From: Takakia lepidozioides
Lineage: Eukaryota > Plantae > Bryophyta
Reading direction: 5' to 3'
NCBI GenBank assembly: GCA_030704615.1
Contig: CM060732.1
Location: 71,114,001-71,178,000, forward strand
DNA: 64,000 nt
A program made the translations under genes and the position numbers. Below, piece by piece: positions 31,316 through 57,899 of this stretch; positions within the stretch are counted from its first letter, which is position 1, and each line of letters opens with the position of its first letter. The notes under the pieces are model-generated. The model had not been told where the DNA came from. It saw nothing but the letters and a program-made list of their open reading frames with translations, and searched no databases.

Positions 31316-31897
31316 TATTTTAACTAATTCTGGACTTTTGTTTGGTCCAGAAATAATACAAGATATATGAATAATTATAATCTATAATAGAAATAAAGAG
31401 ATATATCTATAATTATTTGACTATTTGTGAATTATATAACAACGAATTATATAATCCTCCACACATTCTACGCAAAAATACAAGTATGTATTGTGGTCTT
31501 AGATGAACATCCACTGCCAAGTTGACGTTCATTAAAAGGAATGGGAGGATGCAATGAATCAAACAATGATGAGAGCTCCGATATCCAAAATGACATACAC
31601 AAACAAACATGGAACAATGGCAGAACCAAATATGAAACAATGATGGCATGTGATGAAGAGGACAACATGGAAAACGAGTCTCTCGGGACCTGATTGATGA
31701 TATGAAACATTCATATTTTATTTGAGATTATATCATTCAAGGCGATGGACCAACAGAAAAATGAACATCAACTGTCCATCCGTTCATGGACTTAATGCCA
31801 TACAAGCCATAGATTCTGAAGCCATAGAACCGTTACGGCTTATACTAACTCATTAATAATACTGAGCCTCCTCCCAAACGGCTCGCAGTCAAGGCAT

Positions 31898-32524
31898 GTG
31901 TCCGAAGACGCCTCCTCTGTGGCTGACAAGATCATTGGGAGGAAACTAATTGTCTGTGGTAGAGCTGTTAATTGGTGGACCAATGAGATTAAACTCAAGA
32001 TAGCTGAGAGACGAGTCCTCTGTAAAGAGTGCTGCAATTTGAAAACCAACAAAGAACTATGGGCTAGGTACTACCAGGTCCGCAAAGATATCAATCAGTT
32101 TGTAAGGTCTCAGAAGAAATTATACTGGGACAAGCTATACAGTGAAATAAACTCAAACCACCATAGTGGTAATGACAAGAGATTTTGGTTGGCCCTTCAA
32201 CGTTTGTACAAGCCGAAAAGTTGTCAGCAAGTACAAGCGCTGAAGACTACTAAGGGTGCAGTGGTGATTTCAACGGTTGACATTGTCAAAACCTTTGAAA
32301 CCCACTATAGTATCTTTGGCAGAATTTCTAAGTCTAACAGAGAGGGGTCCTCTGAAGAACGGAAGGACACAGTTGGAAAAACTGTTCCTATGATTCAAGA
32401 CAGCCCTGATGAACTGGAGTATATTTCGAAGGCTTACAACGCTCCCATTAGTTCTTCTGGGATTGTGGAAGCAATTGAGCATTTAAACGGATATAAAGCT
32501 GGATGTGGCGTTACATATCCATAA
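31898..32524 (+). mobile_element. LINE ORF2 fragment (endonuclease-RT linker)
   Basis: WWTNEIKLKIAERR...KKLYWDKL...KRFWLAL...EAIEHLNGYKAG resembles the non-LTR ORF2 segment that precedes RT; it stops before the RT core. Confidence 0.65.
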
Positions 32525-35761: not shown

Positions 35762-38500
35762 CTTGACATGAATACACATTCCAGGGGGCATGGTGAGGAG
35801 CCTGGAAACAAAGGCTATCTTTTCAGAAGAGAGGATTCATTCCTCTTCCATATGCAATAGAAGGTGTGTGTCAGGCAAGTACCCAACCTCTATCATCTGC
35901 CCAGACAACTTCTTCAGCCTCCAGAAATTCAGTCAATTTGTGGATGCACTTCAATTTATACAACTTATGCACCTGGTCATTTACCTCAATCCAGCTGTGC
36001 CATGGCACCTCTTTTAACCTCTGTCCTAAATCACCTCTCACCTTTGCTTTATCCTGCCACCTGCCAGCCCAGCATGAATGCAATGAGGTGCTATGATCAC
36101 AGATGAGAAGGAATTTTGCAGCATGTTCTGCTCGCTCCACGTTGCTGTAAGTTCTGCAGGCACCAGGCAAGGCCCCCCACACTGAAGCACCTTGTTCAAT
36201 TGGCATATTGTTAACAACGTTCTCCGCCTCATCCAGTAGACCTGCATGGCCAAAAAGGTCCACCATGCAGCCATAATGTTCCACAGTAGCATTGAGCCCA
36301 TGATCTCGAATCATGGAATCAAAATAGTGTTGCCTTCATCCAGTAGGCCCCCGTGATTACATGCCAATAGAAGACATACAAAGGTGATATCATTTGGACT
36401 GAACCCTTCATGTTGCATTTGTTCAAATACATGGAGGGCCTCCCTACCATATCCATGCTGGGCATATCCTATGATCATCGCATCCCATGACACCACATCC
36501 CGTACAGCCATATTGTAGAATATTTGACATGCATCCTTCATGCTTCCACATTTGGCATACATGACCACAAGGGCAGTCTCCAGAAAGATATTGTGTCAAT
36601 ATCCCAGCTTTGATGATGGCAGCATGGTTCTCTATGCCCTTTTCCAGGGCGGCAAGACTGGCGCACATATTGAGAATGCAAATGAACACAACTTTGTTGG
36701 GCTTGACACCTTCCCTTATCATTTGCTCATAGATGTCTATAGCCTCTTTATTATGCCCATGCTGAGCACATCCTGTTAACATTGCACTCCACGAGACAGC
36801 ATCTTGTTGAGCCATATTGTCAAACACTTGACTCACATCCTTGAGGCTGCCACACTTTGCATACATGTCCACAAGGGCAGTCTCGAGAATGAAATCTGGT
36901 ATAATCCCAGCTTTGATGATGACAGCATGTACCTTTTTGCCCTTTTCCAGGGTTCCTAGGCTGGCACATGCATTGACAAGGCCATTGAACGTGACCATGT
37001 CAGGCATCACCCCTTCCGCTTGCATTTGCTCATATAGTTGGAGGGCCTCCCACCCACACCCATGTTGAGCATAGCCTGCAATCATCAAGTCCATGAGACC
37101 ACATTTTGTTGAGCCATATTGTCAAACACTTGATGTGCAACCTTCATGCTCCCGCATTTGGCATACATGTCAGAAATGGCACCCCCCAGAATAATATCTG
37201 GAGCAATTCCACTTTTGCTAATGTCAGCATGGACAGCTTTGCCCTCTTCCAGGGCTCCTAGACCAACATAGAAGGGAGACAAATGAGAAGGGAGACAAAT
37301 GTGGCCCTATTTGGCACCACCCCTTCCTGTTGCATTTTCCGATACATCTTGAAAGCCTTTGTACCACACCCATGCTCAGTATATCCTCCAATCATGGCGT
37401 TCCATGAGACCACATCTCGTTGAGCTATATTGTGAAACACTTGACATGCATCCTTCATGCTACTGCATTTGGCATAAATATCAACAAGGGTGTTCTCCAA
37501 GTTAACATATGACACAACTCCAGCTTTGATGATGTCAGCATGTAACACTTTGGCCTTTTCTAGGGCTCCTAAACTGGCACATGCATTTAGATCACATATG
37601 AATGTGGGCTTCATCCCTTCTGATATCATTTGCTCATAGAGCTCAAAAGCCTCCTACCACACCCTTGCTGAGCATATCATGCACTCCATGAGACCACATC
37701 TCGGTGAAACATATTGTCAAACACTTGATGTGCTCCCTTCATGCTTCGGCATTTGGAATACATGTCAACAAGTGTATTCTCCAGAATGATATCTGGCACA
37801 ATTCCACTTTTGCTGATGTCAGCGTGGACCTCTATGCCTTTTTTCACATCTCCTAGGCTAGCACACCCCTTGAGAATGCAAATGAATGTGACCCTGTTGA
37901 GTCTCACCCCTTCCCGTTGCATTTGCTGATACATCTCTAAAGCCTCCTTCCCACAACCATACTGAGCATAATATCCTACAATTACCGCGCTCCATGAGAC
38001 CACATTTCTTTTTAGCCATTTTGTCAAAAGCATGTCGTGCATCCTTAAGGCTCCCACATTTTGCATACATAATAGCAAGGGCAGTCTCCATGATAATATT
38101 TGGTGCAATGTGAGCTTTAACAATGTCAGAATGGACTTCTTTGCCCTTGTCCAGGCTCCCTATGCTGGCACATGCATTGAGGATGCAAATGAATGTGACC
38201 CCGTTGGGAGTTATTCCTTCCTGTTGCACTAGCTCATACCTCTTGAAAGCCTCCCTACCATACCCATGCTTGGCATATCCTGCTATCATTATATTCCATG
38301 TAGATATATCTCGGTCAAGCATTCTTTCAAACTCTTGGCCTGCATCCATGATGCTCCTGCACTTGGAATACATGTTGATGAAGGAGTTAAGTAGAAAGAT
38401 GTTTGGCTTTCGCTGAGAATAGGGTACAGCCAAGCATAGACAGCGTGTACTTCTATAGACACGCCCTCCAAGTCGATGCTCACTTGCGAGAAACCAGGGG
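35762..38500 (-). pseudogene. PLS-class PPR-E-DYW RNA-editing factor pseudogene, multiply frameshifted, DYW domain truncated
   Basis: Repeated LVDMYAKCGS..DA..VFD.M...DVVSW.AMI.GYAQHG...EA...M..EGV.P..VTF...L.ACA motifs are split across ORFs 37858-38433, 37677-38123, 37258-37629, 37085-37282, 36444-37094, 36311-36568 and 35871-36314. E domain EHYGCMVDLFGHAG, SWIEVNDQVH; DYW start GYLPDTHLLLHMEEE*ILSSEKIAF at ~35885-35800. Confidence 0.9.
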
Positions 38501-40341
38501 TCATCTCAAAGCGGGGGTGAATGCCCGTTCCAAAGCAGATGCTTCTCTGGGATGTAATTGCCAGCTGAAGTACACCTGAGACATTAAAACTGTTCTTCAA
38601 ACCTCCTGCATTCTTATTCAACTGCACATCTGTAAGCGACAATGGCTAGTTCCGGTGTCGCTGCATCCAATTCATTCGAAGTGAGGTATCTAGGAATTGA
38701 ATCCCTCCTTGACGAATTTGGTTCTGGAATCCTCAGATTGGAGCGAGTCCCCATTTGGAAACCAAAAAAGGTTGTGCAACATCCACCGTGTAGATCTCCC
38801 TCTGAGATCCGTGTGTGAAGACACTTCTTCCGGTTATTTTCGGGCATTTCGGGCAGGTTCCAAAAATTTGATGACGACGACGTGATTACAAAACATGACG
38901 ACGGTAACATGGCACAAGGTAAGAGGGGGTGGGGAGGATTTGACAGGACCCCCGCCGGAGGAGCCCAGGCTGCCGGAATCCGGCAAAAGGACAGTCACAT
39001 CGCACGCGTCCATTCACTTCTTACATTCCCCTATGGTCTTCATTTTTACATTGTTGTGGGACCCAACAGGATAAGGAACGTCCATCATAACATGGACCAT
39101 CTCTCTCTACATACATCATCCACGCATACATATACATAAGATGATCTATATACATCATCCACACATACATATACATAACAACATCATCTTATCATGTAGT
39201 GCAATAATAATAATAATATTTAATTTTTGAGGCCCCCCCAAGGAAGCGTAAATTATGGTACATTTAATAGCATTCAGATCTTAGGGGCGGAGGATGCGCG
39301 ATGTAAAGAGGCTCTGCAGTTTGCGGTGAGAGAGCTTGAGGACTTAGTATTTTTTCAAGCTCTCCTCAGCGCATCCAGCACAAGTCCCATCAATAGCTCG
39401 ACAATGCACTGAAACTAAGCTCAGTATTCAGTAACTCATGCAGTCTGTGAGTCGGCGCTATGGCTTTGCCCTAATTCTTCAATTCTCTGTTGAACTAACA
39501 TAACTCTTCCTCGTCATCCCCCCTTTCTTCTTATTCTCTTCCCTCTTTTCTTTCCCTCAGGCTCACTGCCTTCCCTCTATCATCCACGAACTCCCTTTCT
39601 CGTTTCTTTCTCTTTCCCTAGCTGGTGGCGCGATTCCCCACGATCACATTAAGAGCATATTCTCCCCCGACAAAAACAGCCATCCCCTGACTGTTTAGCG
39701 AGCGATATTAAGTTCCTTTGCACTCCTCCAGCTCAAGTTGGCATTATGCCCCCATAATGTAGAGCGAAAGTCTGCTGCATTCATGAATACAACGCGGGCA
39801 GTGTTACTCCCGAAGCATTTGGGCGGCTCCATCTATGGTGGCTAATTATCGCAGGGGAGTGATCCTTCCCCCTCCCCTTCTTTCATGACATGCTTTTACC
39901 CCCCCCAAAAAAGGCTTGTCTGCTTTCAATCCTTGTTTGGCTTGCAGCTCTCGATCGAAGGAAGACTGTCAGTTATTGAATGAGTGCTTCTTCATACATC
40001 TCATTTATGTAGGATACAGGCTGCTCCATACGTTCTTCGCTATAATTGCCCGTTACACCCTTCTATAAGCTGGGTGTGGCCTAGTGCTCCCAGGTCTTTC
40101 TAGCCGAACTCCTTCATTAACACATTTCTATAGTGCTCCCTCTCTTCTTGTCTGGTGCGTGACATCGCTTGCTAAGAATTGGTGGGAAGACAAAGGGGGG
40201 TTTTCCGACACCGCGGCCACGTCGCGGCGTCGTAAAACAACCCTTTTCGGATAGGGGGGAAGAACCAAATTTGCGACGCCCGGGCAACGTAAGCCCGTCG
40301 CAATGGCGTCACCAAAAAAATGTCGCAAATTTGCGACCAAT

Positions 40342-40775
40342 GGGGTGGATCCACGAGGGGTGGTGGTAGCTTAGTGGGTCTTAGTGGGGGTGGCATAGGT
40401 CTCACCATGGGGCGGAGACCTTGTGGTGGGAGTCGTGGGGAGTCTTGGACTCATCACGGTCCAATAGGGCCGTGGTAGGTGGGCCAAGACTCACCGCGAC
40501 TCATCACCGGGAATTGAGGGTCTTCGTGGTGGTTCGCCATAAAATGACTGGGTTGTTTGTGAAACCCCCGCGGACAGTCACAGAAGTATATATAGGGAGT
40601 AGTAACCCCGAGAATGGTGCAAGCCCGTTGGTGACCCAAAATTAGTGAGTAAGCTTGCGAGCCGGAAAGCGACCAAGGTGTGGGGAGCTGTTCCGGACTG
40701 TCAACAACCAAAGGGAATTTCCACTAGGCCTAAAGTGAGCGAGGGTCTTGTGGAGGAGCAAAAGGGGGACCGTTA
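40342..40775 (+). repeat. Internal part of an LTR from the same family as 55317-56061, in opposite orientation
   Basis: Near-identical to the reverse complement of ~55453-55890 (e.g. ggtggatccacgagg..., ...gagcaaaagggggaccgtta). Confidence 0.85.
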
Positions 40776-40789
40776 TAATTGAATGTGGG

Positions 40790-41314
40790 TAAAGATGATT
40801 TTGTCTTGTCAAAATGTGGGAGATTACCGTTGGTCGCGTCCAAGATAGAGTTCCTGCCCAGTTTTGGACAGCAAGAGCAAACGTGACCCTCACCACCACA
40901 TTGGAAGCATATTGTGGAGATGAACTCCTCCCTGATTGCAACGACAATGAACAAGTTGACCAATGTGGGGAGTTTGATGGAGGTACCTATTGGCTTAGAT
41001 TCCGGCATTAGCACTACCAGCTTTGGAACTCCGTTATCCCTGTTGAAATCGAAGTGCACAGTTTCCGTATCAACGCTTCTTGCACTAGTATCCTGAATTG
41101 GCTCAAAAACGTTGAGGGAACCGATGAACGTGCCGAAGCTTGCACCGATTTCTAGGAGAGAAGTTAAGTATGTCGCAGGTAGAAAGGGAATTGCGATGAC
41201 CCTTGGTTTCCACATTACTCCTTGTTTGTGGCCGCAGTCATAGGTCCAAGGAAAAAGAAAAACCTTCGCAGCAGACGTCTGGGTATTGAACTGTAGCGCC
41301 ATCTCTGCTTCCAC
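40790..41314 (-). mobile_element. L1-type LINE ORF1 fragment with CCHC zinc knuckle
   Basis: ...LLEIGASFGTFIG...ICFQCGGEGHVCSCCP (CX2CX4HX4C), the arrangement typical of plant LINE ORF1. Confidence 0.6.
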
Positions 41315-41338
41315 TGGACAACAAAAAAGAACCAGGTA

Positions 41339-41346
41339 TAATAATA

Positions 41347-41391
<45 letters not shown>

Positions 41392-41413
41392 TAAAAAAAA
41401 AAAAAAAAAAAAA
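41339..41413 (+). repeat. (ATT)n microsatellite followed by a poly(A) run
   Basis: Seen directly in the sequence. Confidence 0.9.
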
Positions 41414-41614
41414 CTACTCTGCATTGCAGAATTAGCACCGTCCGGGGTCGCAAAGTGCGATGCCCGGACGTCGCAATTTAAGGGGGTACATTTGAATTTC
41501 AAAACTTGTTGACCATTGACTCCGGTTCTGTCTAATGGCGATATGTTCATTGTTCTACATATATCATGAATGCATACTTGAACCTAGGACCTCCACGTTA
41601 TAAAATTTCTAAGA

Positions 41615-42203
41615 TACTACAGACTAACCAACACACCGATGCTACATCTATGTATCACAAAAACAATATATATATATAACCCCAACCCCAACCCAGCGTC
41701 GTCGCGTTGTTGCACCCCCCACCACCAGGCGCCCCAAGCGACGTCTTTGTGATGACCTAAGCTAACTACAATACCATTGCGACCCCATGTGGCGACGCCG
41801 TTGCGACCTGACGTCGCAGCGTTGGCCGTCCCAGCGCGGGACGCCCCCAACGACGTTTTTGTGAAGTTGAGGGCCGCAAAGCCGAAAAAAAAAAAAAAAA
41901 AAAACTCTCATTGTGGTGATGCTGTTGCGACGCCTTGGCGTCGCAAAGGTGCTAGGGCACCCTTAGTGACGCTTTTGCGACGCCGAGGCATCGCAACGTC
42001 CAAAAAAAAAAAACTGGCGTTGCAAGCAAAAAATCCGTCACAACAAGGGCTCTTTTTCCCCCTTCATGCCACCTTGCGACGGCTGGGCGTCACAATGGTG
42101 TCGGCAGCGAGGGATTGCGACGCCGAGGCGTCGCAAAAAAAGCGCCGCGCGGGGCGTGGGGGCGCCGCTAGCATCGCAAACCCCCCCCCCCTTTGCTGTA
42201 GTG
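41615..42203. mobile_element. Non-autonomous CACTA element
   Basis: Left end tactacag (one mismatch to CACTACAG), right end ctgtagtg, 3-bp TSD AGA on both sides (41612-41614 and 42204-42206), and many internal TGCGACG/CGTCGCA repeats in both orientations. Similar repeats occur at ~40155-40340. Confidence 0.7.
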
Positions 42204-42631
42204 AGAGAAAACAGAGGCGGCTCTGCGCAACGCTCAAGAGCAGCCCAACGCTCTCACTCCGCGTTAGCTGTCCATGGAGGGAAATCAAAGTGGATTATCA
42301 AAAACATCTCCATCTCCAATGGATCTGGAGACTCCATCTTGGGCAAAGGTCTAGGCCCATCGCTCGATATACAATCCCCGTTTGTCAGACGAAGGAATGT
42401 GGGAAGACTCCATCCCCCAGGAGGTCGCCGGACAGCCTGTGTTGGCCCTGGATAAGGAGAAGCTTAAATGTCAGGCGCAAAAACTCTCTCAAAGGGGGAT
42501 TCTACTCTATTTCCCGGGCAAACTCAGATCTAGGAAATGGGTTCGCGGATGGATAGCCGGGCACCTTGGCGCTGAAGGAGGACTTGCTCATCACTTTTGC
42601 TTGCCCATGGGCAGAGGTTTACCGCAACTCG

Positions 42632-42790
42632 GTGTGCGGGGCTCCACCTAGTGCGCGCCTCCGCCTCCTTGAATGTATTGGGCACTCAAGGGTGCTTCAG
42701 CCCCCGTACCTATTGTTGCCACTGCCCCCACCACAGGGGCAGCCCCTCTTGTGTCCCGACCCCCTGCCCTCAAGGCAAGGGGCCGCGACA
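42632..42790 (-). repeat. 5' terminal piece of an LTR from the 55317-56061 family
   Basis: Matches 55901-56061 in the same orientation and ends at the same terminus (..gcgaca, i.e. TGTCGC on the minus strand). Confidence 0.85.
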
Positions 42791-44147
42791 CACACCCCTA
42801 CCAATAGGGAGTCGATGTCCTCATCGACTTGTCCATTTTGTAGAAACTGACATCCAAGTTGTGGCGTCCCACATCAAGGAGTTTGTTTCCGTACCATGGC
42901 GTTACATGGCAAAGAACCAAACCCCCACTTGACTCTACTCTCCACTAGCTAGTTTGGCCGACTTCCTCCAAGTCGTGGCCAAGGGTGGAGCCTATCAAGC
43001 TCCACCCAGTGCACTCTTCTTGGCCCACTTCAAGGCCAAGGAACGATCCTCTCCGAGGATCGAATCGCCTTACTGCAACAACATTGCTTGCGACCGCTCA
43101 TGATGCCACTTTTGGCATCACCTTGAGCAAGAGTTCACCTTGAACCCTTTTTTACTAGGACGATAACCTTGAACCAACCGCGTGCCCCAATCACTGCAAT
43201 TGGGTCCGCCTTGGAATGTTGGCATGAGGTACAGGAACACGCCGAAGCCGCACTATGACTTCGTCCCGAGGTTATACGATTATAGTACGTGAATGGAAGC
43301 ACGTAGCTTCTGCGTTAGTCCGCACTACAAGACAACCCCCTCGGTAGCACAGTTATAGTTAGCGCACGCGCCAGGTGCGCACTAGCACGTGAACTCCCAA
43401 AGAAGACGCAAGTTTCCTTGTCCCTTGGATGGGAGTCACCTGATTTTGACACTGCGCAAACACACGATTAATCCAATTTACCTCTCCCACTTTTGTAAGC
43501 TAGCATGTATTCTACACACTAGCCAACCATACCATGCATCACCATTCCAAACAAAATAGGCAGCACAACATTTGGGAACCATTTCATTTATAAACAAAAT
43601 TTGTGCAACACCAGTTTTGCAATCGGATTCCTAAGCTAGCTAAGCCGGATTAAGCATGCATTTCCTCTCCCATGATCTAAGGTTGATGTCTCCATCAACG
43701 CTTCTCCCGCCTTTGAGGTCGCCCTTTGAAAGCTGCAACCGCCTCAGATGCGTTTATCATTTCTGAGGCACGCACCCAAGTTGCCTCCACTACAAATGAA
43801 ACCGAGTGGTCTCTACACATAGCTGGTTGCACCGGGCTTGTGGTTGTGACTTGACATTGCTGAACGATTGTCTCTTGCGGCTATGGGACATCATACATAC
43901 AAACGGGCCATAGATGGATCACCCTCAGTAAAATCAGCTCCTTTGAAGAGGGAGGTTCGAGGACTAGAAGAAAACAGAATTCAAAGAGACCTGGATCATA
44001 ACCTGTAAATTTCTCCCACTGTACGAAACTAAGGATGTGGTTGTAGGTGTATATACTTGATGCACAACACTTTGAGGAGGCGCCAGTGGCAAGACTGAGG
44101 TTGCCTCAGCGAGTTCCGTATGGATTCCACTCCACCTTCATTCCCGT

Positions 44148-44417
44148 TTGATGAGGGTCCAGACGATTGTATATCTAATGCATGACCGATTGTACGACAT
44201 AACAGTTTCAAATTTCCCCAATTGCACCTGTCCTGATTTTGTTGGCATGCTTATAACAAGTTTGGGAAAGATAGGAAAATTTATACCCTGCAAGAATCTG
44301 TATTTTATCTTCTTGAACAGAATGGTTTGTGATCCCAGACGCGACATCTTCATTCACCAGGCCACCATGAGTTTCAACGAGGTGAATACACTTATGCAGC
44401 GGGATAGGAGCACATAG
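44148..44417 (+). pseudogene. SWIM zinc-finger fragment, possibly transposon-derived
   Basis: YDITVSNFPNCTCPDF...IPCKNLYFIF fits SWIM CxC-x(n)-CxH with H replaced by N. Confidence 0.55.
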
Positions 44418-47400
44418 CATCCTCTTCACTTTGGTCATCTGCAATTTCCACTACTGGATTTCACAAGAATTGAAACTTAAACTTGATGTCCCTTCGTATA
44501 TTTGCCAATGCAGCCTCCAATTATGTTGTGCAATGTGTGCCATTTCTTTCTTGTGTGTAGTCGTTCGAAAATAGATGGAATGGATGCAAATGCTTTCACA
44601 AGTCATTAATTTTTGGTGTTTTGGATGAATGAATGCCACGGCTATAGGCCCCTCGGCTATAGGTGCTAAACGTGGTGCTGCTGAAATGAGTTTGCAGGTG
44701 GTGCCTGATGTGGCCATTGATGAGTCAGGCACAATTGAGGTGTAGCCTAACTCCCCAAGGCAAAGCCACACCAGTTTGCTGCAATAGTGAACATAAACTT
44801 GGCAGTGAGAGGAGACGAAGGATCGAAGCTCGGGAGTCGTGGCTAGAGCAGAGCACGGATCTTGGCTGGAGCAGAGCAATTCATTGGGAGAGCAAGCCTC
44901 TGGTGGTGCGTCTGTAAAACACAAATGAATCCTGGGAATTATAGGCCACATTGCCAGGGAGTATGTGAGGACTACATGAACATGTTCCGAACCCGTAGCT
45001 AACCTGGGAACAACTTTTAATGTCGAGAACGTTTTGGGTGTGAAAAATTAAAGAAATTCGTTCTTTGATCTAATTTAAATTACATAGAGTATGTTTGGCC
45101 ATAAATTTGGCATACCAAGGCCGTTTGACCCAAAACTTGCGCAGGGACCTACAGAAAGGGGAAATCTACCTACCTAGACAAAAAATCTATAGGTTTTTTG
45201 GACCTGACCAAAAATCTATAGAATTTTTCTAATATAAATTAGATCCTCCCCACATCTATTTGAGGTCTATTGAAGAAGCTATTTCAAGTCAGGGATGATC
45301 ACTTAGCTGTCTGTTTGTAACACATCTGTCACTTTTTTACATTAGTGTATGGCTAGAGAGGAAATGAAGAGTGTCGGGATGAGGGCATGCTGGGTTTAGG
45401 AATTGCTTTAGTCTCTCCTTCCCATAGCTTTCCACCCTCTCGGTAGGCCAAAACCTTTCCATAGGTGGAGGCAAGAGTCAGTCCGGGTTTTTGGGCTGGG
45501 GTATTCTGCACGAGCAGCACTACAAATGGATTTTGGTGTGGGGGTGTTGATGTTTTGATTTCTTGTGTTTGGATCCCCGCCAACACATACATGCTTGACT
45601 ATGCGCCATGTTGGTCTTGTGTGGGCACTTGCTTTCACAGGGATTAGGTTGGATTTGATCACCGGTCAATCCTAGAGTATGCTGTCGGTGGTGAGGCTGG
45701 AGTGATGACCAGCAGACCACCAGTGTTTTCTTCTATGGTGAGACTGGTTGATGACCAGCCAACCATAGGAGTTCTTGCGGGGATGCAGGTGCAGGTGCCC
45801 TGAGCCACTGGGATATGAACCTTAACTGCAACAAGTGCCCACCCTTTTCACTATAGAATTAGTATTAGAGCCCTTATAGTGTCACGTGGGGGAGGTGCGG
45901 TTTGTGAGTGTCATCACGAGTTACCCAGGGTTTTGAGGGGAGTACGGCTACAGGCAGTAGCAGTGAGAGTGGGTTCACAAGACGAGGTGTTCGGTTCAGA
46001 CAACCTTTACCTCCACCCTCAACTAGTGTAGAGTCTGACACAGACCCGGAGGCTTCATCAACAGGTGTGCAGTTTCTTTGTGCCATTGTTGTGGGACGAC
46101 ATTGAGGAGATGATGGAGCTACCAAGGGCCTCGTAGGTACTCTGGAGCTGTGGGCACAATCGAGCTAGATGACTTATCCGGAGTTCGACAGCTGGTGTAT
46201 TTGCAGCAGATGCGCAATCCACAGCTGTTCACCCCCATCCGCGTGGAAGGGACTGTTCCAACCTTTTGGAAGGCCCGCCTATGGACGATTACCACGAGTT
46301 CATGCGAGACATGAAGTAGAGATTGAGGAGTGGAGGATGTTTGGTCACCTGACTACGTCTCCATTACTCGAGGCACGACGCGACCAGGCTGCATCATCAC
46401 CATATCTCCCACTAGTAGTGGAACAGTAGTGTTGGTATTTCTTGCAGAATGGCTACTACTTCTCTCCACGACTACACACCATTTGCCTAGATTCAGCCCG
46501 GTGTTGGATTTCTTCCAGGAGTTTCGAGGACTCCAAGGCGTACGCACATAGAAGCTGCCAATTTGCAGACTTCCAGCGCACATCCAGTGACGAGCTTGCG
46601 AGAGGCCCGACACTCGTATGAGGCCTTGAAAGTGTGATCCAATGGGTTACTGAGCTCAGTAGTCCAGTTCGGTATGGAATTTTTTTACAGGAGCTCAGGA
46701 GAAGGTTGCGGGATGCAACCCTGTTACAAAGCGGCCCAACCCACATTAACAGATGTGTTTTTTGCTGGCTGAGCGATTGAGCTCAACATTATGGAGGAGC
46801 GAGTTGTTTACCATTTGGATTGGCAGGACTTGCTTGCACAAGGCCGCAGCTGCCAGCCAAAGGCACAAGGGACTGCCAACCGCTGGTCATAGGGGGCAAG
46901 TTGCCCAACCCACATTCCATGGAGCTTACAGGGGACCTCAGGTGGCATAGACCAGTAGCTTGTTTTGCAGCCAACAGCAACCAGGGGTGGTATTTTGACA
47001 TTGGAGCATCACATGTCAAGAAAGATGTCCCAGAGATGGCAAAGGGCCGGCACAAGCACAGCCTGCACAGTTGCAGTCATTTGGACATTGTGACAATATG
47101 GACATTGAGATGCCCAGTGTTTATGACTTGCACCCTGAGTTTCGGCGAGACTAGTTCCAAGGGAACAATGGTGGCCGAGGGCGAGGTGGAGTCCCTCAGA
47201 GAGGACGAGGTGTCAGGCACGAAGGCAGGACGAGGGTAGCACAGTATGGCCAAGGACGTTGAGGTCAGGGTGCATTGACCAGCCTGGCAACCGGCTTCAG
47301 CAACTAACCAAGGCTTGCTGCCATGGCCTCACCCTCAGGTGGTACCAGCTCCAAGACCTGAGGGACATGGGAGGCATGGGATTTATGTGTGGGGCAGCAC

Positions 47401-48668
47401 TACCATTGTGCAGGTGGACTGCTGCAAGCTCCGTCACTCAGGAGGCCAAGCACGATTTCCTTGAGCCCATGAGGTGGCAGAGGGTGGAGTTGGATCCCAC
47501 AACGTGGGGAAGCAAGCCGTTAGGCTAGGTTGCCTCAATCATTCATCTTGGCGAGATAGTGTCTACTACATCCATGGCACCTAATTCTCGCCCACGGATA
47601 CCGAGGCGGAGGTTATTGTGCACCGCTGGTGTCAGGCCCCAATGTTCTCGGCAACCATGATTGCGACGCCGTTACGCCGGGGGTAAACCATCTGTAGTGT
47701 TCAGACTAGCATCAACACTCTGGTGGAGGAGTGGGGAGGTCACTTCATCTTCGTGAGTTAGTGGAAGGTGTTGCAGAGTGATCCTCGGATTTGAGGGTCA
47801 GACTGCCACGGCTACGCCATGGCAAGCTGCGCTGTCAGGTTGACGGAGCTGCCAGCTAAGCTTAAAGCCTTTGAGCGCGCCATGGTGACAGCTGAAGTTG
47901 TCTTGTTTAGACACCAGGATGACATTTTCTTTTTGAGTGGACCGGCAGGCAAGAGGTACCGGCCACTGCAGGTCTTGTTTGGACTCGGGAGCTCAGCCAC
48001 GGATGTTGGGCAGAGCTGCTATTGCAGGTTTGGGCCTCATGGAGGCGGATATGAGCCTTGTCTTGTCCAGATACAGACTCTCTGGGAGATCAGAGCAGGC
48101 TCGGGGCATGACATACGGCATAGTTGGCCATTAGACTACAATCCGGATCATCTATAGATGGCTCAGTGATGCGAGCCAAGGCCATTGTGACCAACGCAGT
48201 CTCCTATGATGCCATCGTTGGTGGGGTAGTGTTGTACCCATGGGCTTCACCCTGGATTTTTGGGAGAAGTCAGCATCCTACAGGCCTGGATGGTATTTCA
48301 GGGTGGTCGTCGTGTAAACTCCCTGTGATGGGAGTATTGCTGCTGCCCCAGCGGGGCAAGATGCAACCTAAAAGGCAGCCTTCACATCTGCAGTTATTTG
48401 GCCTGGAGAGTTTCTGGAGGCAATGCCCATAGCAGATGATATGCCACCTCCAGCAGAGCAGAATGACATGCATGGTACGGCGGAGTTGTCTCCATGGTTG
48501 CTCACACTCCATGGCGGGTACTAGGAAGAGTTGCAGCAGGCTGCTGATCGACGGGTGTCAACAAGCCTGGGTAGAGGCCTTCGTCCGTCAGGAGAGTGCG
48601 GTGATTGCACCAGACCACCTTAGAGTTGTCGCGCATTGGACACCACACCTCTTAGGTGGCATGGCCCG

Positions 48669-49620
48669 GATGAAGGCATATGCTTTCTGGACTTGTTTGG
48701 TGGGATCAGCACTAGATTGGCTGCAGTGCTGCAGGCAGGTGTACGAGTTTGACGTTACCTGTATGTGGAGAGGGATGAGACTGCACACGCGTCTCACTGC
48801 GCCATTTTCTCAGTTGGTGCAGCAGTATCCTGATTTTGTTGTCATTGTCTGCGTTCGTGGATACCAACAAGCCTTTCCAGCAGACAACTCTTTGTTGGGG
48901 TGGGGCATGATTTGGAGCGGTTGGCCCTATTCACGTGGTAGTGGCAAGTTGGCCCTGCCAAGGGCATTCAACAGCCGAGCATGGCAATGGGTTACAAGAC
49001 TCAAGGTTACGCCTGTTTTGGGAGATGTTGAGGGTCCTACGCTATTACACAAACACAGCTTCAGCAGACAGACTCTCCAGCATATATCTTGGAGAATGTT
49101 CCATTGATGGTTATTCTCGGGCCAAGGTGATGGCCAGTGTGCATCAAGTGTGATCTTGGCTTGGGTTAGCAGTGTTGTTGTGGTCACGGGCTCATCGCCC
49201 ACGACTATGGTGGACCAACTTGATGCCATCTGCACTGCTCAAAGCGTGGCATTTGATGGGGTGCAGCGGCCACCAAACCTGATGGTGGATACATTTTGGA
49301 CATAGGGAGGCAGTCTCAGCGTGTGAGACATGATGACCGATCACCTTTGGTGTGGTCAATAAGGTGGGTCACCACGAGCCGCATTGCCTACACTGCTCAG
49401 CTTTCCAGGATCTCATACTTTCCTCCGGGATGGTGGACCTGGCCTCTTGTGGGATAGCCAGTTGCACCTTATTAGTGGAGCCCAATGCTGACGAGCGCAA
49501 GCGGGCGATGGGTTTTAACACTGTACCATGGCGGTGCCATCTCTTTCCGAGGCTCACGCACGTCGTCAGGTGTTGGGGCAAGTAATGATCTCAATTGCTT
49601 GACCTAGATTATCAGCTTGG
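48669..49620 (+). pseudogene. DNMT3-like C5 cytosine methyltransferase domain inside the gypsy pol, frameshifted
   Basis: Motif I ICFLDLFGGISTRLAAVLQAG...YLYVERD (from 48669); motif IV VVASWPCQGHS (Cys 48956-48958); motif VI YILENVP (ENV 49092-49100); motif VIII SRAHRPRLWWTNL (49184-49222); motif IX EPNADERKRAMGF (~49478-49516); motif X RRQVLGQVM(D)LNCL (from 49561). Confidence 0.88.
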
Positions 49621-52600
49621 CTATGGCTGAGCAGTGCAGAGTACGGAGTACACTTCCCTTGATGTTCTCTCTGCCTACCGATATGGTACAGGCAGGGAGT
49701 GTGGGCGAATAGGTGAGGACCACAAGGTGCAGGCCGCATCCATGGCACACGTGGGAGGTTCTCGAGGTTCAGAGGGAATTGGCAGCCAAGGCTGCGGTGA
49801 TGGATGAGGTTTGGGGATTTTCTCGGGTTTGAGGAGGTCCTCAAGGATGGGATGATGGGGCAGGATGAGACATTGTCACTGACAGAGCAAGCAGTGGTCA
49901 CTGCTCAAGAGGTTGCAGCATAGCACCCTACGGGACGCGTCTTCTACCTCTAAGCCTACTCTGACTCAATGTTACAGTTATGGAGGACCTGGGAGCCTGA
50001 TGTTGGACCTATAGTAACCGGAGGAGAGAGACGACGTATACAGCGGTTCTTGAGGGCTTACATGAACTGCTTTGCCTTCAGTTTGAAGACTTGGGAGCAC
50101 TGAAGGGTCAAGAGATTCGCATTGAATTGGCTACTGACAGCCAATCTGTCGGAGACCCTATAGATACACTGACATGGAGAGGTCTTGATTCAAATAGGAC
50201 TCAGGACCTCTGGGAGGCTGGTTTGGTGGAGCTATCTGGTGGAGATATGCTGCTCAGCCACAGTGATGCCACCCAGAAGGATGTCTATGGCAATTGGACG
50301 GAGAGACGTATGTGCGGTGATTACCGGCCTGTAAATCGTCAGACCAAGTCCAATAGGTATGCCATGCCAACACCAGAGGAGATCTTTGATGCCATTGGGC
50401 ATGCCAAGGTCTTTAGCACTTTGGATTTACGTATCGATATCACCGTTGCCGATCAAGGAGGCGGATAAGCAAAGACGACATTCTGGGGATCAATGAGCAT
50501 GGGAAGGATTGCCATACCAGTGGCGGTTCTTACCATTTGGGCTTAAGAACCTCCTGCAGAGTTTCAGAGAGTCATGGACAGGATTCTAGCAGGGGTGGAT
50601 TTTGCTCGGTGCTATAAGATGACATCATCATCTTTAGTGCTTACGGTGGAGGAGCATGAGAGACCCCTTCAGGTGGTATTTGAGCGCTTGAGGGCGCACG
50701 GATTGAAGTTACATATCCGGGGAAGTGTAAGTTTTTCCATAACCAGATTGAGTATCTGGGTCACATGATATATCCTGGAGGATTTGGGGATAACGCAGAC
50801 TAAGGTAGAGGCCATTGCAACAATCCACGCCCCACGGATGTAGCCAGAGTTCGAGCTTTCATGGGTTGGCAACTATTATAGACGCGGGATTTAGTGCCAT
50901 TGCAAAGCTCTAACCAAGCTGACCAAGTGACACGGAGGGGCAAGTGAAATATGAGCAAGAACGAGCTTTCCAGAGCTCAGGCGAGTTTGACCTCGCGCCC
51001 ATCTTGAGACGACCTATCAGGGGGCGCTTTTCAGCTTCATACCTATTGGAGCATGCTGGGGCTTGGAGCGGTGCTCACACCGGGGATGATGAGGGAAGAT
51101 AGTTCATAGTGGCTTATACTAGCCGCTCGAACAACGCTGCATAGGCTAATATATCTCATATGAGAGAGTGTGCTTACTGCAGTGTGGGCCGTGGCACAAC
51201 TCAGTGCTATCTATACGGCAATCTCTTCACCCTTGTTCACGGATCACCAACCACTCAAGTGGTTGATGAGTCAGACAAGCTTATGGGGAAGCTGTGCACG
51301 GTGGGCACTCATCCTTCAAGAGTATGATTTTTCAGGTTGTGCATACGACCGGTTTTGGTCAATCGGGATGCGGATGGGTTGAGTCCGCAATCTATCACGA
51401 GCCAGCAGGATGACACTGGAGCTCGGTGGCATGGTGAGACGACGAGGAGCATGGTGCCCGGATGGCATGGCATTTACATTTTGTTATCTTTGCAGCGGAA
51501 GGCCAGGTTGGACTACAACAGGGATGACTGTAGACCGAGTTTCCTGAGGACCCTGAGGCCAGCAATGAACAAGGTGGCGCCAAAGATATACATGAGGATT
51601 CAGCTGTGTTGGACTATCTCCGCGGAGACACGACAGCCACTGTGATTGCCAAGGGAGAGATCGGATCCTACAACGAGCCAGAGGTTCAAGTGGGAGGGAA
51701 CACACTTGCTCCAAGTGTGGGAGGATGGTCGAGTGAGGATTGTGCCTCACGCCAACACAGCGGGCACGGTTAGTGCGACATGCCATGAGGGTAGTTGGGG
51801 CATTCTGGGTGCGACGCACTTATAGTCTACTGCACAATGGGCAGTATTGGTGGCGTGGTATGCACACAAGTTGCAACAATTTGTGGCTAGGTGCATGGTG
51901 TGACAGGGTGCGTGTTTCATTCAACGCCCCTACACCACAATTGCACCCTCTTCCGATTATGGGATTGGGCTACAGGTGGAGTCTAGACTTTGGCATGGAA
52001 GGCCGTTGCCACTGACCATACGCCACAAAAAATACGTGTTGGTGATGGTGGAGCACTTCTCCAAGTGAATCGAATTGGTTCCATTGGCCTGATAGGCTAG
52101 TAAGGGGGTTGCGTATGCATTCTTGGATCGTGTACTTAGCCGATCCGGTGCTCCACCTGAGGTACTCACGGACCAAGGAGAGAGTTCTTGGGGGAGTTCA
52201 GGCATTGTGTGACAAAGCCTTGATAGACCACCGCACTACTTCTCGGGATCATCTTGAGGCCGATGGCTTGGCAGAGAGGGTTTGTTCAGACAGTGAAGAG
52301 GGGTTTGCGCAAATATGGCTTGCCGAAGGGACACCTAGGAGATTGGGACGTCAGTTATCCCTGGTTAACCATGGGCTACAGGTTTAGCAAGCCAAGCATC
52401 ACTTGCCTCGTTCTCACCCTTATTTCCTTCTCTTTGGCCGAGAGCCAGACTTGCCTACATCTATTCGCAGGAGGCTGCAATAGTCCTCAATCTTGACGAT
52501 CCGGACGTGTGGGCACGTGCATGTGGTCAGCGCGCGGAGTGTTTAAGAAAGTCATGCCCATGGCTTTTGAGAACCTTTCCATTGCACACCACTTGATTAC

Positions 52601-52889
52601 GTTGAGGTATGCTACCATACGTGGTGGGGGCTATCGTCTTGGGGTTCGAGAGTTCACTTCACCCTGGTGACTATGTTTATGTGCAGCAAACTGCTCCAAC
52701 GACCCTGGATGTGACTGCAGAATATGTTATTTTGAGGGTTCGAGAGGTATTGCCCTCAGGTGTCTTGATCTTGGAGGGTCGGGATGGCATGACTTGGAAG
52801 GACCATGTGCATAATTGCGCGCCATGTCACCTTCCGAATGTCGATGGCAGGATTGATCCAAACCTGGCAGTGATACCGCAAGTTTGAGG

Positions 52890-53033
52890 TGCATGTTGTG
52901 TGGGTCTGCTAGAGGGCAAAACACCATGCTGGTGTGTGATCAATGCTCTAGAGGTTGGCATATGGGATGCTTGACTCCACCTCTTGAGATGGTTCCTAAT
53001 GGGGATTGGTTATGTCCGCATTGCATTGGATAG
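52890..53033 (+). CDS. PHD finger at the C-terminus of the gypsy integrase/polyprotein (domain intact, parent ORF broken)
   Basis: CMLCGSARGQNTMLVCDQCSRGWHMGCLTPPLEMVPNGDWLCPHCIG* has the complete Cys4-His-Cys3 pattern with the conserved W before the last Cys pair. Confidence 0.9.
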   Translation, partial: CMLCGSARGQNTMLVCDQCSRGWHMGCLTPPLEMVPNGDWLCPHCIG

Positions 53034-53290
53034 TGAGAGTGGATACAACCATGGAAGGCTAACAAGAAATGCAAGGCCCAGCTACTAGGAGACCAACACA
53101 CGAGATCCTGGCTCAAGTTCATATATTGCAAGACGACGACTAACGAGGGGGTTGCTCTTGTACCTGGCCTCTTGGTCTATAGAGTTTGAGTACAATAGGG
53201 ACAGTGATAGAGGACTTAGTACGGCTGTGGCTATTACATCTTGTAGCTATCTGGAGTTAGAAGGACCTAACCACCAGCTAGGGGGGCGAT

Positions 53291-53730
53291 TGTGGCAGAT
53301 TACTTTATTGTGCATATATGTGTGGTGTGGTTTGGACAGCGATGTCGTTGTATAGCGATACGTATGCGCACGACAGCTGTCAAATTAAATAAACACAGTG
53401 TGAAACTAACTAGAATAAATCTAGTTATTTGTATTTAACACTTGGAATTAGTTCAAGTGTTAAGTCAGGTGTCAAGTTTAGCTTGACACCTGAACCATCT
53501 CATCTTCACGAGCTCGTCAGTCGTGTGGCTCATCTCTCTCGATTTGAGCCTGCACGACCGAGCTCCCTCGTTGCTTAACATCTGAGTGTACTTATGAGGG
53601 AGAGTAGGATGTTGTGGGGTGGAGTCCCCATAGCTTGGGGTGCCCCTGGCTTGACTCTTATTTTAACGAGTGATCATATTGTATTTCGTGTTTTGTGTCA
53701 ACAGCCAGTGTGAGTTTAGTTTACATATCA
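53291..53730 (+). repeat. Putative 3' LTR of the DNMT-PHD element; its first 85 bp are repeated at 53732-53816
   Basis: Starts TG a few bases after the purine tract and ends CA at 53730; 53732-53816 is a near copy of 53291-53375. Confidence 0.6.
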
Positions 53731-53816
53731 TTGTGGCAGACTACTTTATTGTGCATATATGTGTGGTGTGGTTTGGACAACGATGTAGTTGTGTAGCGAT
53801 ACATATGCGCACGACA

Positions 53817-56061
53817 CAAATCCCGAGCTGAAGAGGAACATCGAACGTCAACCTCGTCGCCAATTGTGGTTCTCCTTTGGCAGAACACACTTCAATAGAG
53901 GCCCCCACATCACTTGTCGGGAGCCCCAGCTTTCGTGCCGTTGCCGGTATCATGACGGAGTGCGACGCTCATGTGTCCACCAACACCGACACGTTAGTTC
54001 TGGAAATTATCCTACTCACAAATATTAACTGATTCCTTTAACGCAAGGCGGCCAGTCTCCTGATAAACTCACAAAAGCATTTGCTACTTGCAAAGTCTTG
54101 GCGACCACCGCTTCCACCAAGCGGCTGATGGAATCTTCGGACAGCTCCGAGTTCGCCCGAGTCATGTTCAATTGTCAGGGTTTCGCGCATTTCTTGGCCA
54201 TGTGCCCGGGCTCCCCACAATTAAAGCACACTCCATCAAAGGTCGCCTTCTGTCCGCCATAAGCCGCCGCACGTGATTTTTCTTTCGTGGCACCGAGTGC
54301 CGCTTTGACGTGCGAAGGCCCTCCCTTCGATTTCCATGTGCCATTGGCGCCACATGCCTATCCCACTTCTTTTCCGGTCGGAAGTGTCACCCCCCCCCCT
54401 CCGCCGGATCTTCTTGTGGTTCAGCTCCGTACGGCCTACTGGCCTTGTCGCGCCCCTAGGGACATCCGAAAAACATTCAGCCCTTTCAATTGCCTCGTTC
54501 AAAGTCTTAGGTGGCTTCTCCTCCAACTTCCGTATAGCCCATGGGGCCAGTCCCGCCACAAAGTTGAAGACCATTTTTGGTTCTGCCATATCCGCGACTT
54601 CGAGCAACAGCACATTGAAAACTGACATATCCCCCGAATGTCATCCGTTTGCTTCAAATACCTCATCTTGTCCCGAGCAAGCCAGGACACGTTCAGGGGC
54701 ACAAACTGTCTTTTCATGAGTTCCTTGAACCCACTCCAGCTCAAGATTTCTGGGTTTGGACCTTGGTCGTGAAGGCGTTTCTGCCACCATTGTTGAGCAT
54801 AGCCCCCCTCAAATAGGTGGGAGCCACTTCCACCCGATCCTCATCACTCAACTTGGCCGCCCGAAAATACTAATCTAGCTCCAAAAGCTAGGTGTTGAGT
54901 GCCTTCTGATTTCGGACGCCCTCGAAAGTGTCGGGTTCCTTAGGCTTCACCTTAAATTTTGCCTTAGTGGAAGTGGCATTAGCCGCCTTCAATACGTCTT
55001 TCAACGTCCCGCCAAACTGCACCAACAACCCTTCCCAAAAGGCTGCTGGCATAAGAGACATCTGTTGGTTTGGCAGAGCCTCTGGGAAGTCCTCGGGCTC
55101 CGACTCCCAAAATTCTTCCCGTTCTTGAGCGGCCTCACTTTTAGAAGCATGAATTGCCTCCTCCAATTGCCCCTTCGGTGACACGTCGCCCCCACCGGGC
55201 TCACAGGATCATCAGCTTTCGGGCCGTTTCCGCTTTCGCTTCCTTTGTCTTGCCCACCCCATGATGAGGCCAATCTCAAGGATGATCGCGTACTGAACTC
55301 TAAGCTCTGATACAAGTGTCGCGCACCTCACTTCGGTAAGCTCCCCCTCAAGTCTTACTCTCTAAGTCATAGTTACTCGCTTTGATGCGCGCGCCTAACT
55401 CCCAAACTGGCCGCCGCGGGCCAACTCGGAGTTTCGGCTGCTCACCGGGACGTAACGGTCCCCCTTTTGCTCCTCCACAAGACCCTCGCTCACTTTGGGC
55501 CTAGTGGAAATTCCCTTTGGTTGTTGGCAGTCCGGAACAGCTCCCCACACTTTGGTCGCTTTCTGGCTCGCATGCTTACTCACTATTTTTTGGTCACCAC
55601 GGGCTTGCACTGTTCCTCGGGGGTTACTACTCCTATATATACTTCTGTGACTGTCCGCGGGGGTTTCCACAAACAACCCAGTCATTTTATGGCGAACCAC
55701 CACGAAGAACCCTCGATTCTCGTGATGAGTCGCGGTGAGTCTTGGCCCACCCACCATGCCCCCATTGGACCGTGATGAGTCCCAAGACTCCCCACGATTC
55801 CCACCACAAGGTCTCCGCCCCATGGTGAGTCCTATGCCACCCCCACTAAGACCCCCTAAGCTAAAACAACCACCCCTCGTGGATCCACCCCCACCGCCCC
55901 CGTGTGCAGGGGCTCCACCTAGTGAGCGCCTCCGCCTCCTTGAGTGCCTTGGGCACTCAAGGGTGCGTCAGCCCCCGTACCTATTGTTGCCACTGCCCCC
56001 CCACAGGGCAGCCCCTCTTTGTCCTCCGACCCCCCCTCCCTCAAGGCAAGGGGCTGCGACA
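53817..56061 (-). mobile_element. Second Ty3/gypsy element, 3'-truncated: 5' LTR (56061-55317), tRNA-iMet-type PBS, degenerate gag with CCHC knuckle, and protease
   Basis: LTR bounded by TGTCGC...GCGACA, followed by cttgtatcagagc (PBS variant of TGGTATCAGAGC). Gag KPKEPDTFEG, SWSGFKELMKRQFVP, FVAGL; knuckle CFNCGEPGHMAKKC (~54234-54185); protease VLVDT*ASHS (~53985). Confidence 0.88.
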
Positions 56062-56341
56062 GTAGGCCTCCCTTGGAAATTGGTTGTTGCTTCCCTGCCT
56101 CCCACCGTCGCAAGTCCAAAGAAGCATTTGCTGCACCCCTTGCTTTCCGTTTGATTTCCTCTGGCGCAAGCCCAAGCCTCTCAGCAGTGTACTCCGACAA
56201 AAGTAGATCAAAACTACAACTTGTATCGAGGAGCACCATTGCATCGCAAGCATGATCTGTGGTGGTCACTTTGATACTAACGTACAAACTGCTCCCCTTA
56301 TTAGTTTGACGGACTTTGAAGTTGTTGTCCTTTGCAAACAC
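56062..56341 (-). pseudogene. Retropepsin-like (clan AA aspartic protease) fragment interrupted by the LTR
   Basis: LYVSIKV...AMVLLDTSCSFDLLLSEYTAERLGL resembles the hhhDTG....hh....A..LGL pattern. Confidence 0.4.
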
Positions 56342-57899
56342 ACCATAGCCATGAATTAAAGAAAACCTTAAGCATCAAGTAAGTGGCTCTCCCTCTGCAT
56401 ACACACCGGTCACTATGTGCTGAAGAGGATGAGAACGAGTAATAAAGTTGGTCATCAACACACCAGTCACTGATAAGAATCCACACAGTACGAAGAAGTG
56501 GAAATCATAAAGGTTCTGGGGCATTTGAACAACACTACCGAAATTACAAAAGAGGATCACGCACGACGGTCCCAAAATTCATTCAAACAGCTAGCAAATG
56601 GAACAAAAAGTAGCTAAGACACTACTGAATCTTCTAAACAAAGATGCGAAACTTCACTAGTTCACAAGGTGAAGAACAAAAACCTTGATTCGCAGGCATG
56701 ACAATGTCACTAGCTTCACAACATCACCCATATTACCACAAAACTTGAGAGATACAAAGATCCAGTCTAAGCAAAATTGTTGATATTAATGAAGAGAAAG
56801 AGTACTGAACTGAAAGAGACTAATGCATAATGAACTTTATTTGTTAAGAATGTTGGTCATCCTCACTAAAGTAATCTCTATAATATCTAGATTAATATAT
56901 GCTAAATAATACACAAATCAATCAACATAGGACATTTTCCACAATAGCTAGCCAAGGTCGTTCACTCTCGGAAAGGAAAATATGCGATTGACTCGAACCT
57001 ATGTGCTCAATAGCTACTTCACTCTTATTCTGCTAAAAACATTTGCCCATTGGTGTTCCAAAAAGTGCCAAAGTCATGTTCTCTTTTAACATACTTGAAG
57101 AGAAATGACCGTACCCAACCAATTAGTAAATTCTAAAAGTTTATCAAAAGGAAAGTGGTGCCCCAAGGAAAAGGAAAAGGAGGATCTACATTCACCGTAA
57201 TCACTTTTGAATTAAGGTTCTAAGACCACATAGTAGGAAACAAAGATTGATTACCCATAAGACCACTCACTTGAAGTTGCATGCTCTAGGTTTTAGTTCT
57301 ACCAAAATTGATTTCAAGCTCAAATTGAGCAATTTAGAAGAATACATTCTTTACATATGTTTTGTCCTCCTCACATTGCATGTTCTAGTTATTTTCTTGT
57401 ACCTTTTTTACTGTGGTTTGCTTCTCAGTCAACAAATCGTCTTGTTGTCTACTCACATGTCTTGTTAAAATTTAATCTTTTTGTTTTGACGGCCGCGGCT
57501 CCACCTTTTAGACCCATAAGTAATACAAAAGGTCCATGGGTTACGGGAGAGTGGGACATACTTACAAAAAGATGAACTAGTGTTAGTGATGATGAGACAA
57601 GATCGGGAGAAGACAAGTTTATCGTTGGAAATAATTGAGGTAGACTGTCTAATGTGGATCCAATTTCATGTGTGTTTCTTTTTTAAAAATGCTTTTAGAT
57701 GTTACATCAAACATATTTTTATCCACGATATACTTTGCGGCCGACAAGATTTTTTTTTTTGTTGTTGTTTATATTTATGTTTTATTTTCAAAAAAACAGT
57801 AGGGGAGACCATAGTCGTAGGGGAATCGGCTTGGTTGGCTCTGTCCTTACTTCAAGGCCTTTTTGGACTCATTCATGTCTTCCTCGACCTTAGCCATCT

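Follow-up and report, generated by a model that had tools for sequence, protein, structure and literature searches.

The window, the whole stretch of 64,000 nucleotides analysed from Takakia, contains a decayed member of a high-copy Ty3/gypsy family in which a DNMT3-like DNA methyltransferase is a family trait of the element, present in early-diverging land plants. In the land-plant family ORF1 encodes Gag, protease and methyltransferase and is closed by an in-frame stop codon placed before the reverse transcriptase (RT), and the enzyme is thus not simply "inside pol". The features of the copy are as follows, all on the + strand.

45150..45930 (edges approximate), +, 5' leader, placed by the step in summed contig depth across 45148-45795
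45932..47553, +, gag with zinc-knuckle region, broken (tblastn with the full-length relatives P0142, P0143 and P0153)
47970..48293, +, aspartic protease, broken, with LDSGAQP at 47979
48648..49649, +, DNMT3-like C5 cytosine methyltransferase domain, motifs I-X, broken
48687, +, motif I LDLFGGIST
48947, +, motif IV SWPCQG
49092, +, motif VI ENV
49187, +, motif VIII RAHRPRLWWTNL
49493, +, motif IX ERKRAMGF
49561, +, motif X RRQVLGQ
49921..49929, +, in-frame TAG closing ORF1, with readthrough-type context, at the same aligned place in relatives
50073..50800, +, reverse transcriptase, broken (161/225 identical to P0001)
50950..51380, +, RNase H, broken (PF17917, E 2.6e-8)
51737..52560, +, integrase (zinc-binding and DDE core), broken (173/250 identical to P0001)
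52890..53024, +, PHD finger, end of pol (PF00628, E 1.1e-12)
53280..53289, +, polypurine tract, read from the sequence; relatives have it too, ahead of repeat B
53291..53375, +, terminal repeat B, first copy (TGTGG...CGACA)
53371..53382, +, near-palindromic B/A junction CGACA-GC-TGTCA, internal
53378..53730, +, repeat unit A, sole remaining copy, its position matching relatives
53732..53816, +, terminal repeat B, second copy, the right end of the element

The six C5-methyltransferase motifs reported by the initial annotation between protease and RT (I, IV, VI, VIII, IX and X) were all found there on the + strand, in canonical order from 48687 to 49581 and distributed over three frames. The profile search proposed for this region gave a significant match to PF00145 for the unbroken piece 48911-49150 (E 1.7e-5, 24.9 bits; curated cut-off 22); the remaining pieces with motifs, 42 to 82 aa long, had no Pfam match when scanned singly, and a word-index protein search with an 80-aa window piece had no match. 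A profile built from 32 natural relatives was searched against the six-frame translation of the window, with the reversed window as control. It matched solely at 48648-49649, in four significant pieces lying in three frames and in profile order (51.7, 128.7, 14.7 and 51.2 bits), the best score on the reversed window being -4.1 bits. In a frameshift-aware alignment to the Marchantia relative, 206 of 297 residues of the methyltransferase were identical, with 13 frameshifts and 3 stops, which bears out the earlier statement that frameshifts split the domain; no intron-sized gaps relative to the relatives were seen in the window alignment.

The window copy has far more frameshifts than stops (13 vs 3 for the methyltransferase and 15 vs 0 for the RT, window 48650-50800), and the frameshifts are mostly single-base losses; eight chosen metagenomic copies had 0-2 frameshifts and 0-10 stops, and a PPR gene in the window (36400-38400) is likewise frameshifted. 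Given this excess of single-base losses, assembly errors probably account for some of the damage, besides decay. A real age of the copy is indicated by its 3 stops and by the two B repeats, which are identical at 80 of 85 positions.

The element was assigned to Ty3/gypsy by the order protease, RT, RNase H, integrase and by its Ty3-type RT; for the RT-RNase H of a relative the closest solved structure was Ty3 (E 5e-70). The window protease shares 55 of 106 residues with the Marchantia relative, PF13650 being weak in relatives P0033 and P0081, and PF03732, a part of the evidence for gag, is also weak in relatives. Relative P0001 carries PF17921 and PF00665 in its integrase. The PHD finger at the C-terminus of pol was absent from the initial description. 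It stands after the integrase, where a chromovirus has a chromodomain, and chromovirus identity was rejected, as no chromodomain match was obtained in the window pieces or in P0001 and P0135. CG is depleted to 0.44-0.62 of expectation across the element, with no domain singled out. On the left, summed depth of public-run contigs rises from about 4,000 to 82,000-394,000 across 45148-45795. Repeat A matches nowhere else in the 64-kb window, so the 5' copy expected upstream of the leader is missing; the left target duplication and the 5' repeat were sought in the window copy and neither was found.

Several further features were recorded in the window. The methyltransferase element ends inside a second retrotransposon family with gag-like frames (53817-56400, minus strand, and 40340-42800), which has a Met-type primer site near 55300 and a 440-bp repeat, of which an inverted copy, 93% alike, lies at 40342-40775. 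A PPR gene of PLS type lies at 36370-38505 (minus) and has some seven 300-bp repeat triplets; the host is a streptophyte land plant with genes of this type. An open frame at 16589-17398, without Pfam match, resembles exon 1 of a plant gene for a DEVH-box RNA helicase, which we take to be ISE2-like. A weak SWIM-finger fragment (44076-44417) and LINE fragments (zf-RVT and endonuclease; 30694-32524 and 62664-63350) were also observed.

Sister copies were viewed as public-run contigs placed on 44500-54200 in 30 bins, all of which were covered; one DNA run alone had 35,768 contigs on the element. Summed depths were 223,000-298,000 in the methyltransferase bins and 160,000-578,000 in the protease and RT bins, vs about 4,000 in the left flank, these sums not being copy numbers and run X1 being possibly the window's own sample. 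A contig from another study runs from motif X through RNase H (49559-51680). The RT piece of the window, used as query, retrieved Marchantia Mp2g26090, in which PF00145 occurs beside RT and RNase H, as well as a polyprotein of Sphagnum fallax sharing these motifs; the Marchantia domain as query retrieved 28 proteins, whose sources are Marchantia, Calypogeia fissa, two species of Sphagnum and unnamed contigs. The protease-methyltransferase(-RT) layout is common to proteins of Marchantia polymorpha, Calypogeia fissa, Sphagnum fallax and S. troendelagicum.

A metagenome scan, in which the query was protease plus methyltransferase and the ranking by score, and which therefore favours copies with both domains, confirmed 128 of 166 candidate stretches. 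The best 80 of these 128 correspond to 79 loci and, after near-identical ones were merged, to 64 distinct insertions, one further pair being merged later. Among these best 80 of 128, the methyltransferase follows the protease in 43/43 informative insertions, a protease precedes the methyltransferase in 44/48 and the RT comes after it in 35/38. The four insertions without an upstream protease comprise two internal deletions joining gag to the methyltransferase and two with no protease match. The IMG/VR search returned one weak, unrelated locus. The order in the family is gag-protease-methyltransferase-STOP-RT-RNase H-integrase-PHD, in one frame. With whole-element depth, occurrence in liverworts and peat mosses and 64 insertions, the sister copies carry the domain, as the initial annotation had expected, and the window copy is not a one-off.

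The methyltransferase type was assessed on the nearly intact relative L015. Among 49 solved matches to E 1, DNMT3A was best (E 1.2e-11), followed by DNMT3B/C; M.HaeIII had 1.5e-4, and DRM2 0.02 with its C-terminal part alone. The model of the L015 domain (pLDDT 89.8, pTM 0.90) matched the DNMT3A fold with E 6.5e-20 and TM 0.70/0.83, all listed top ranks being DNMT3. The DNMT3-like character claimed at the outset thus holds by sequence and by fold. A MET1 or CMT identity was rejected, as neither DNMT1 nor CMT occurred among the 49 matches, and a DRM identity was rejected on the canonical motif order, which is not the permuted one (VI-X before I-V), as had also been noted. The Atlas does not place the domain, since its Streptophyta PF00145 cluster and its phage clusters scored equally.

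In full-length copies PC is kept in 27/29 and ENV in 29/29, and every land-plant lineage seen retains the catalytic cysteine, ENV and the RxR of motif VIII. The dN/dS comparison among copies that had been proposed was computed. Between lineages (L015 vs 14 Sphagnum-type copies) it was about 0.19 for the methyltransferase (dN 0.30, dS 1.62), 0.30 for the protease (dN 0.40, dS 1.35) and 0.05 for the RT (dN 0.20, dS 3.84); among decaying copies of one family the values were 0.59, 0.64 and 0.43, respectively. These ratios show purifying selection on the methyltransferase.

In the methyltransferase tree, which is one without host DNMT3 or Klebsormidium rows and with three bacterial-type rows left out (no 150-aa match), the window falls inside a clade supported by 98/99 together with the rows from liverworts and peat mosses and several unnamed ones. 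Closterium, Mesostigma and the single-frame elements fall outside this land-plant clade. The RT tree, computed in quick mode, assigns the window no firm position. The distant relatives P0081, P0112, P0054, P0086 (Closterium) and P0075 (Mesostigma) have WECQG as motif IV; in P0081, P0112 and P0054 methyltransferase and RT share one frame, and P0081 has no PHD match. By these sequences the class reaches the Zygnematophyceae, and possibly Mesostigma.

Among the best 80 of 128 metagenomic stretches, 39 of the 40 loci with a methyltransferase-RT junction have a stop at one aligned place, the junction of the other being deleted; this stop is in frame with both domains wherever no indel lies between. 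Counted as 33 distinct insertions, 24 have TAG, 8 have TAA and 1 is deleted at the junction, so that the stop is present in 32/33, a DNA evidence that covers four lineages with 30 of the insertions belonging to one Sphagnum-type family. At any other single position stops occur in at most 6/25 copies in the methyltransferase, 5/23 in the RT and 13/42 in the protease. A second stop junction, at 3192 in L015, was rejected as private to that locus. In the window the TAG stands at 49921; among the differences listed for the sequencing-run contigs placed on the window, a list short of three differences, none changes this codon, and nearly all sister copies read TAG CAA CCA. Among proteins, 17 of the 20 relatives examined terminate before the RT, and 11 of these 17 end 88-94 aa past motif X or at the matching place. 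Gag-protease-methyltransferase proteins of 1,278-1,331 aa are found in Marchantia and in unnamed contigs, and a separate 1,033-aa protein from RT to PHD recurs among relatives.

This conserved in-frame stop makes the methyltransferase the end of ORF1. The initial annotation was therefore right in setting the enzyme between protease and RT and wrong in counting it as part of pol, and the one continuous protease-methyltransferase-RT ORF for which it proposed a test is interrupted in 32/33 insertions and in the window. The single-frame relatives P0081, P0112 and P0054, without stop or PHD, imply that expression of the enzyme in bulk is not essential to the class.

The RT-RNase H-integrase-PHD part is likely made via readthrough, judging from the context of the stop. 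UAG followed by CAR YYA is the TMV readthrough signal (PMC2754532, PMC2194720), and exact TAG CAA CCA occurs in two lineages, that of the window and L015; L020 reads TAG TAG CCA, and the commonest relative, the Sphagnum-type family, has CAA CCC after the stop in 30/32. As an alternative, pol could be produced by re-initiation, by splicing or from a separate transcript, in which case the methyltransferase would be made at Gag level all the same. This route is judged improbable. It would fit the ATG that the Sphagnum-type family has six bases past the stop and that in L020, where gene callers start the 1,033-aa protein, lies 12 bases past it, and the readthrough hexamer is imperfect in 31/32; the in-frame stop of Candida Tca2 also departs from the TMV rule (PMC2194720). 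However, L015 has no ATG between stop and RT, intact copies keep the frame across the junction, and the exact signal is present in two lineages. For each of the four lineages a long stem about 15 nt past the stop is predicted (z -0.6, -2.0, -1.5 and +0.6), its consensus over 14 rows having a covariation term of 0.25, which lends no covariation support, and an ambiguous register; such an RNA stem is a possible lead only, and if real would also speak for readthrough.

The terminal repeats depart from the Ty3/gypsy norm of one whole LTR at each end, which was not found. The 3' end of the window copy reads polypurine tract, B (53291-53375), GC, A (53378-53730), B (53732-53816). In relatives the 5' ends start with A alone (TGTCA...) in 18/18, and of 14 3' ends, eight have B only, five have B-A-B and one is cut; the arrangement A-coding-B-A-B is complete in L041, L052, L028 and L012/L013. 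An exact 4-bp target duplication flanks six of the seven relatives with both ends, the seventh having one mismatch, and the two element ends in relatives are the two halves of the B/A junction palindrome. Since the B+A unit is bounded by TG...CA like an ordinary LTR, the palindrome within this LTR seems to be what the integrase uses. The palindromic integration site contains CG and CHG contexts.

Further observations concern the same repeats. In 12/17 ends, 10 or 11 of the 11 bases past the 5' A complement a site inside A located 31 nt past TATAAA (e.g. L041 6955-7305, L052 1679-2030), an arrangement which looks like Tf1-type self-priming rather than a tRNA primer site. At the second junction from A to B, the sequence CA-(1-2 nt)-TG resembles the junction of a 2-LTR circle (window 53729-53733), and extra junction bases resembling the end of the polypurine tract or a primer site occur at L028 10837-10859 and L007 5690-5707. 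B was found before the 5' A in 0/18 ends, so the asymmetry goes beyond plain random opening of a circle. The first 113 nt of repeat A contain three tandem hairpins (z -6.2; window 53405-53490).

With moderate confidence, it is proposed that the ORF1-borne DNMT3-type enzyme, likely packaged in bulk, methylates new cDNA, and that the element likely belongs to the lineage of KnitGypsy-Dnmt3. Most ribosomes would stop at the TAG and release Gag-protease-methyltransferase, and a minority would read through the UAG CAR YYA-type context into the RT-integrase part; the methyltransferase would then be far more abundant than the RT. Fused to Gag, it would enter the particle, be cut free by the element's protease and methylate the new double-stranded cDNA or the integration complex. 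New copies marked in advance might escape recognition as foreign unmethylated DNA, or might limit their own harm. The DDE integrase would insert them with a 4-bp duplication and with palindrome halves as ends (A-coding-B or A-coding-B-A-B), and the PHD finger might steer integration by reading histone H3 tails. The solved PHD fingers closest to that of the element are those of CHD4, KDM5B, KDM5A and ATXR5. PHD fingers of these proteins read the unmethylated H3K4 tail.

The same enzyme could instead act after integration or in trans, a nuclear ORF1 product methylating insertion sites, other copies or host DNA, either as self-limiting silencing or as interference with host methylation. The conservation data fit this equally, the likeness of the PHD finger to the H3-tail readers CHD4 and KDM5A/B points to chromatin, and host benefit and genome-wide effects were raised by de Mendoza et al. 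(PMC5890265). The PHD finger is, however, on the integrase side of the stop and not on the methyltransferase, and fusion to Gag would favour the particle; an action of this kind is considered unlikely. Slightly less probable again is a domain kept for a non-catalytic or non-DNA role, such as binding of cDNA or RNA, methylation of the RNA genome or protection of the LTR palindrome. The algal domain showed no activity in yeast (PMC5890265), WECQG replaces WPCQG in the single-frame relatives and in the Closterium and Mesostigma proteins, and the CG and CHG contexts of the integration site would suit such a protective role, but the catalytic residues and RxR kept in all land-plant lineages seen, and the DNMT3 fold of the modelled relative, argue for catalysis.

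Methylation of cDNA by such an enzyme was also the hypothesis of de Mendoza et al. for KnitGypsy-Dnmt3 of Klebsormidium nitens, a Gypsy element whose Dnmt3 domain was assigned to the Pol ORF; when expressed in yeast, the K. nitens enzyme produced no methylation, a result which the authors call inconclusive (PMC5890265). The element class is therefore already published and not categorically new. Like KnitGypsy-Dnmt3, the present family has an intronless non-permuted Dnmt3-type domain in a gypsy polyprotein under purifying selection, and a DIRS-like A-coding-B-A-B arrangement despite the integrase (PMC5890265, Fig. 4 legend), of which the window keeps the 3' B-A-B. Unlike it, when compared by its description and not by sequence, the land-plant family has a stop following the domain, the shared methyltransferase-RT frame being found only in P0081, P0112 and P0054. 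It also has a C-terminal PHD finger, a word absent from the main text of PMC5890265, and it is a very abundant family of land plants, not of an alga. The shared DIRS-like layout is the best evidence of common descent, and on these descriptions the land-plant element most likely belongs to the same old lineage and is not a separate capture. The initial annotation's land-plant lineage of methyltransferase-carrying retroelements stands for liverworts and peat mosses, but most likely as part of the older lineage, as the split repeats are shared with the Klebsormidium element.

SymbioDIRS-Dnmt3 of Symbiodinium likewise has a Dnmt3-type domain in a retrotransposon polyprotein with split repeats, and methylates CG de novo in yeast; unlike the window family it is a tyrosine-recombinase DIRS element of dinoflagellates, and an independent acquisition according to its authors (PMC5890265). 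As in TMV, SIRE1, MuLV and Tca2, an in-frame stop, UAG with CAR YYA-type context, separates two coding regions; in SIRE1, MuLV and Tca2 it lies where gag meets pol or where pol meets env, whereas in the land-plant family it lies past protease and methyltransferase and before the RT (PMC2754532, PMC2194720). The host PpDNMT3a/b of Physcomitrium have a similar non-permuted DNMT3-type catalytic domain, but host plant DNMT3s are stand-alone genes with a C-terminal DUF3444 (Yaari et al. 2019, PMC6453930). A one-off capture of a host DNMT3 fragment by the window copy, in whose favour nothing was found beyond the existence of DNMT3 genes in plant hosts (PMC6453930), can practically be dismissed, since the domain is family-wide in Takakia, two liverworts and two peat mosses, the ORF1 proteins scanned have no DUF3444, and there are no intron-sized gaps relative to the relatives.

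The words "methyltransferase" and "homeodomain" do not occur in the main text of PMC6317226, which treats the REXdb clades Phygy, Selgy and Tcn1. The full-text literature, with most subscription journals outside its scope, yielded no report of the element in land plants or of a stop after the methyltransferase, and no mechanism for the split repeats.

Since 2018 it has been a question why transposons should encode the enzyme by which their hosts silence them, and the carriers previously known are algae, which are hard to manipulate. As the family is present in the genetic model Marchantia polymorpha, with gene models having an uninterrupted ORF1, the question becomes directly testable. The stop past the methyltransferase predicts a high dosage of the enzyme inside the particle, which favours methylation of cDNA over accidental genomic activity. 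Annotators should be aware that in Marchantia, Calypogeia and Sphagnum many gene models named "DNA methyltransferase" represent the element and not host genes.

A wider reading is offered tentatively, as a possibility that we hold with less confidence than the proposal of cDNA methylation itself. An ancient streptophyte gypsy lineage may have shifted its recoding stop past a captured DNMT3, so that every Gag would carry the enzyme, with cDNA methylated before integration, histones read by the PHD-integrase, and linear or circular cDNA integrated through the LTR palindrome. The family is still abundant in liverworts, peat mosses and Takakia. If this reading is true, the retroelement would bring along both a writer and a reader of silent chromatin of its own, and it may have contributed to bryophyte methylomes, which could be tested in Marchantia.
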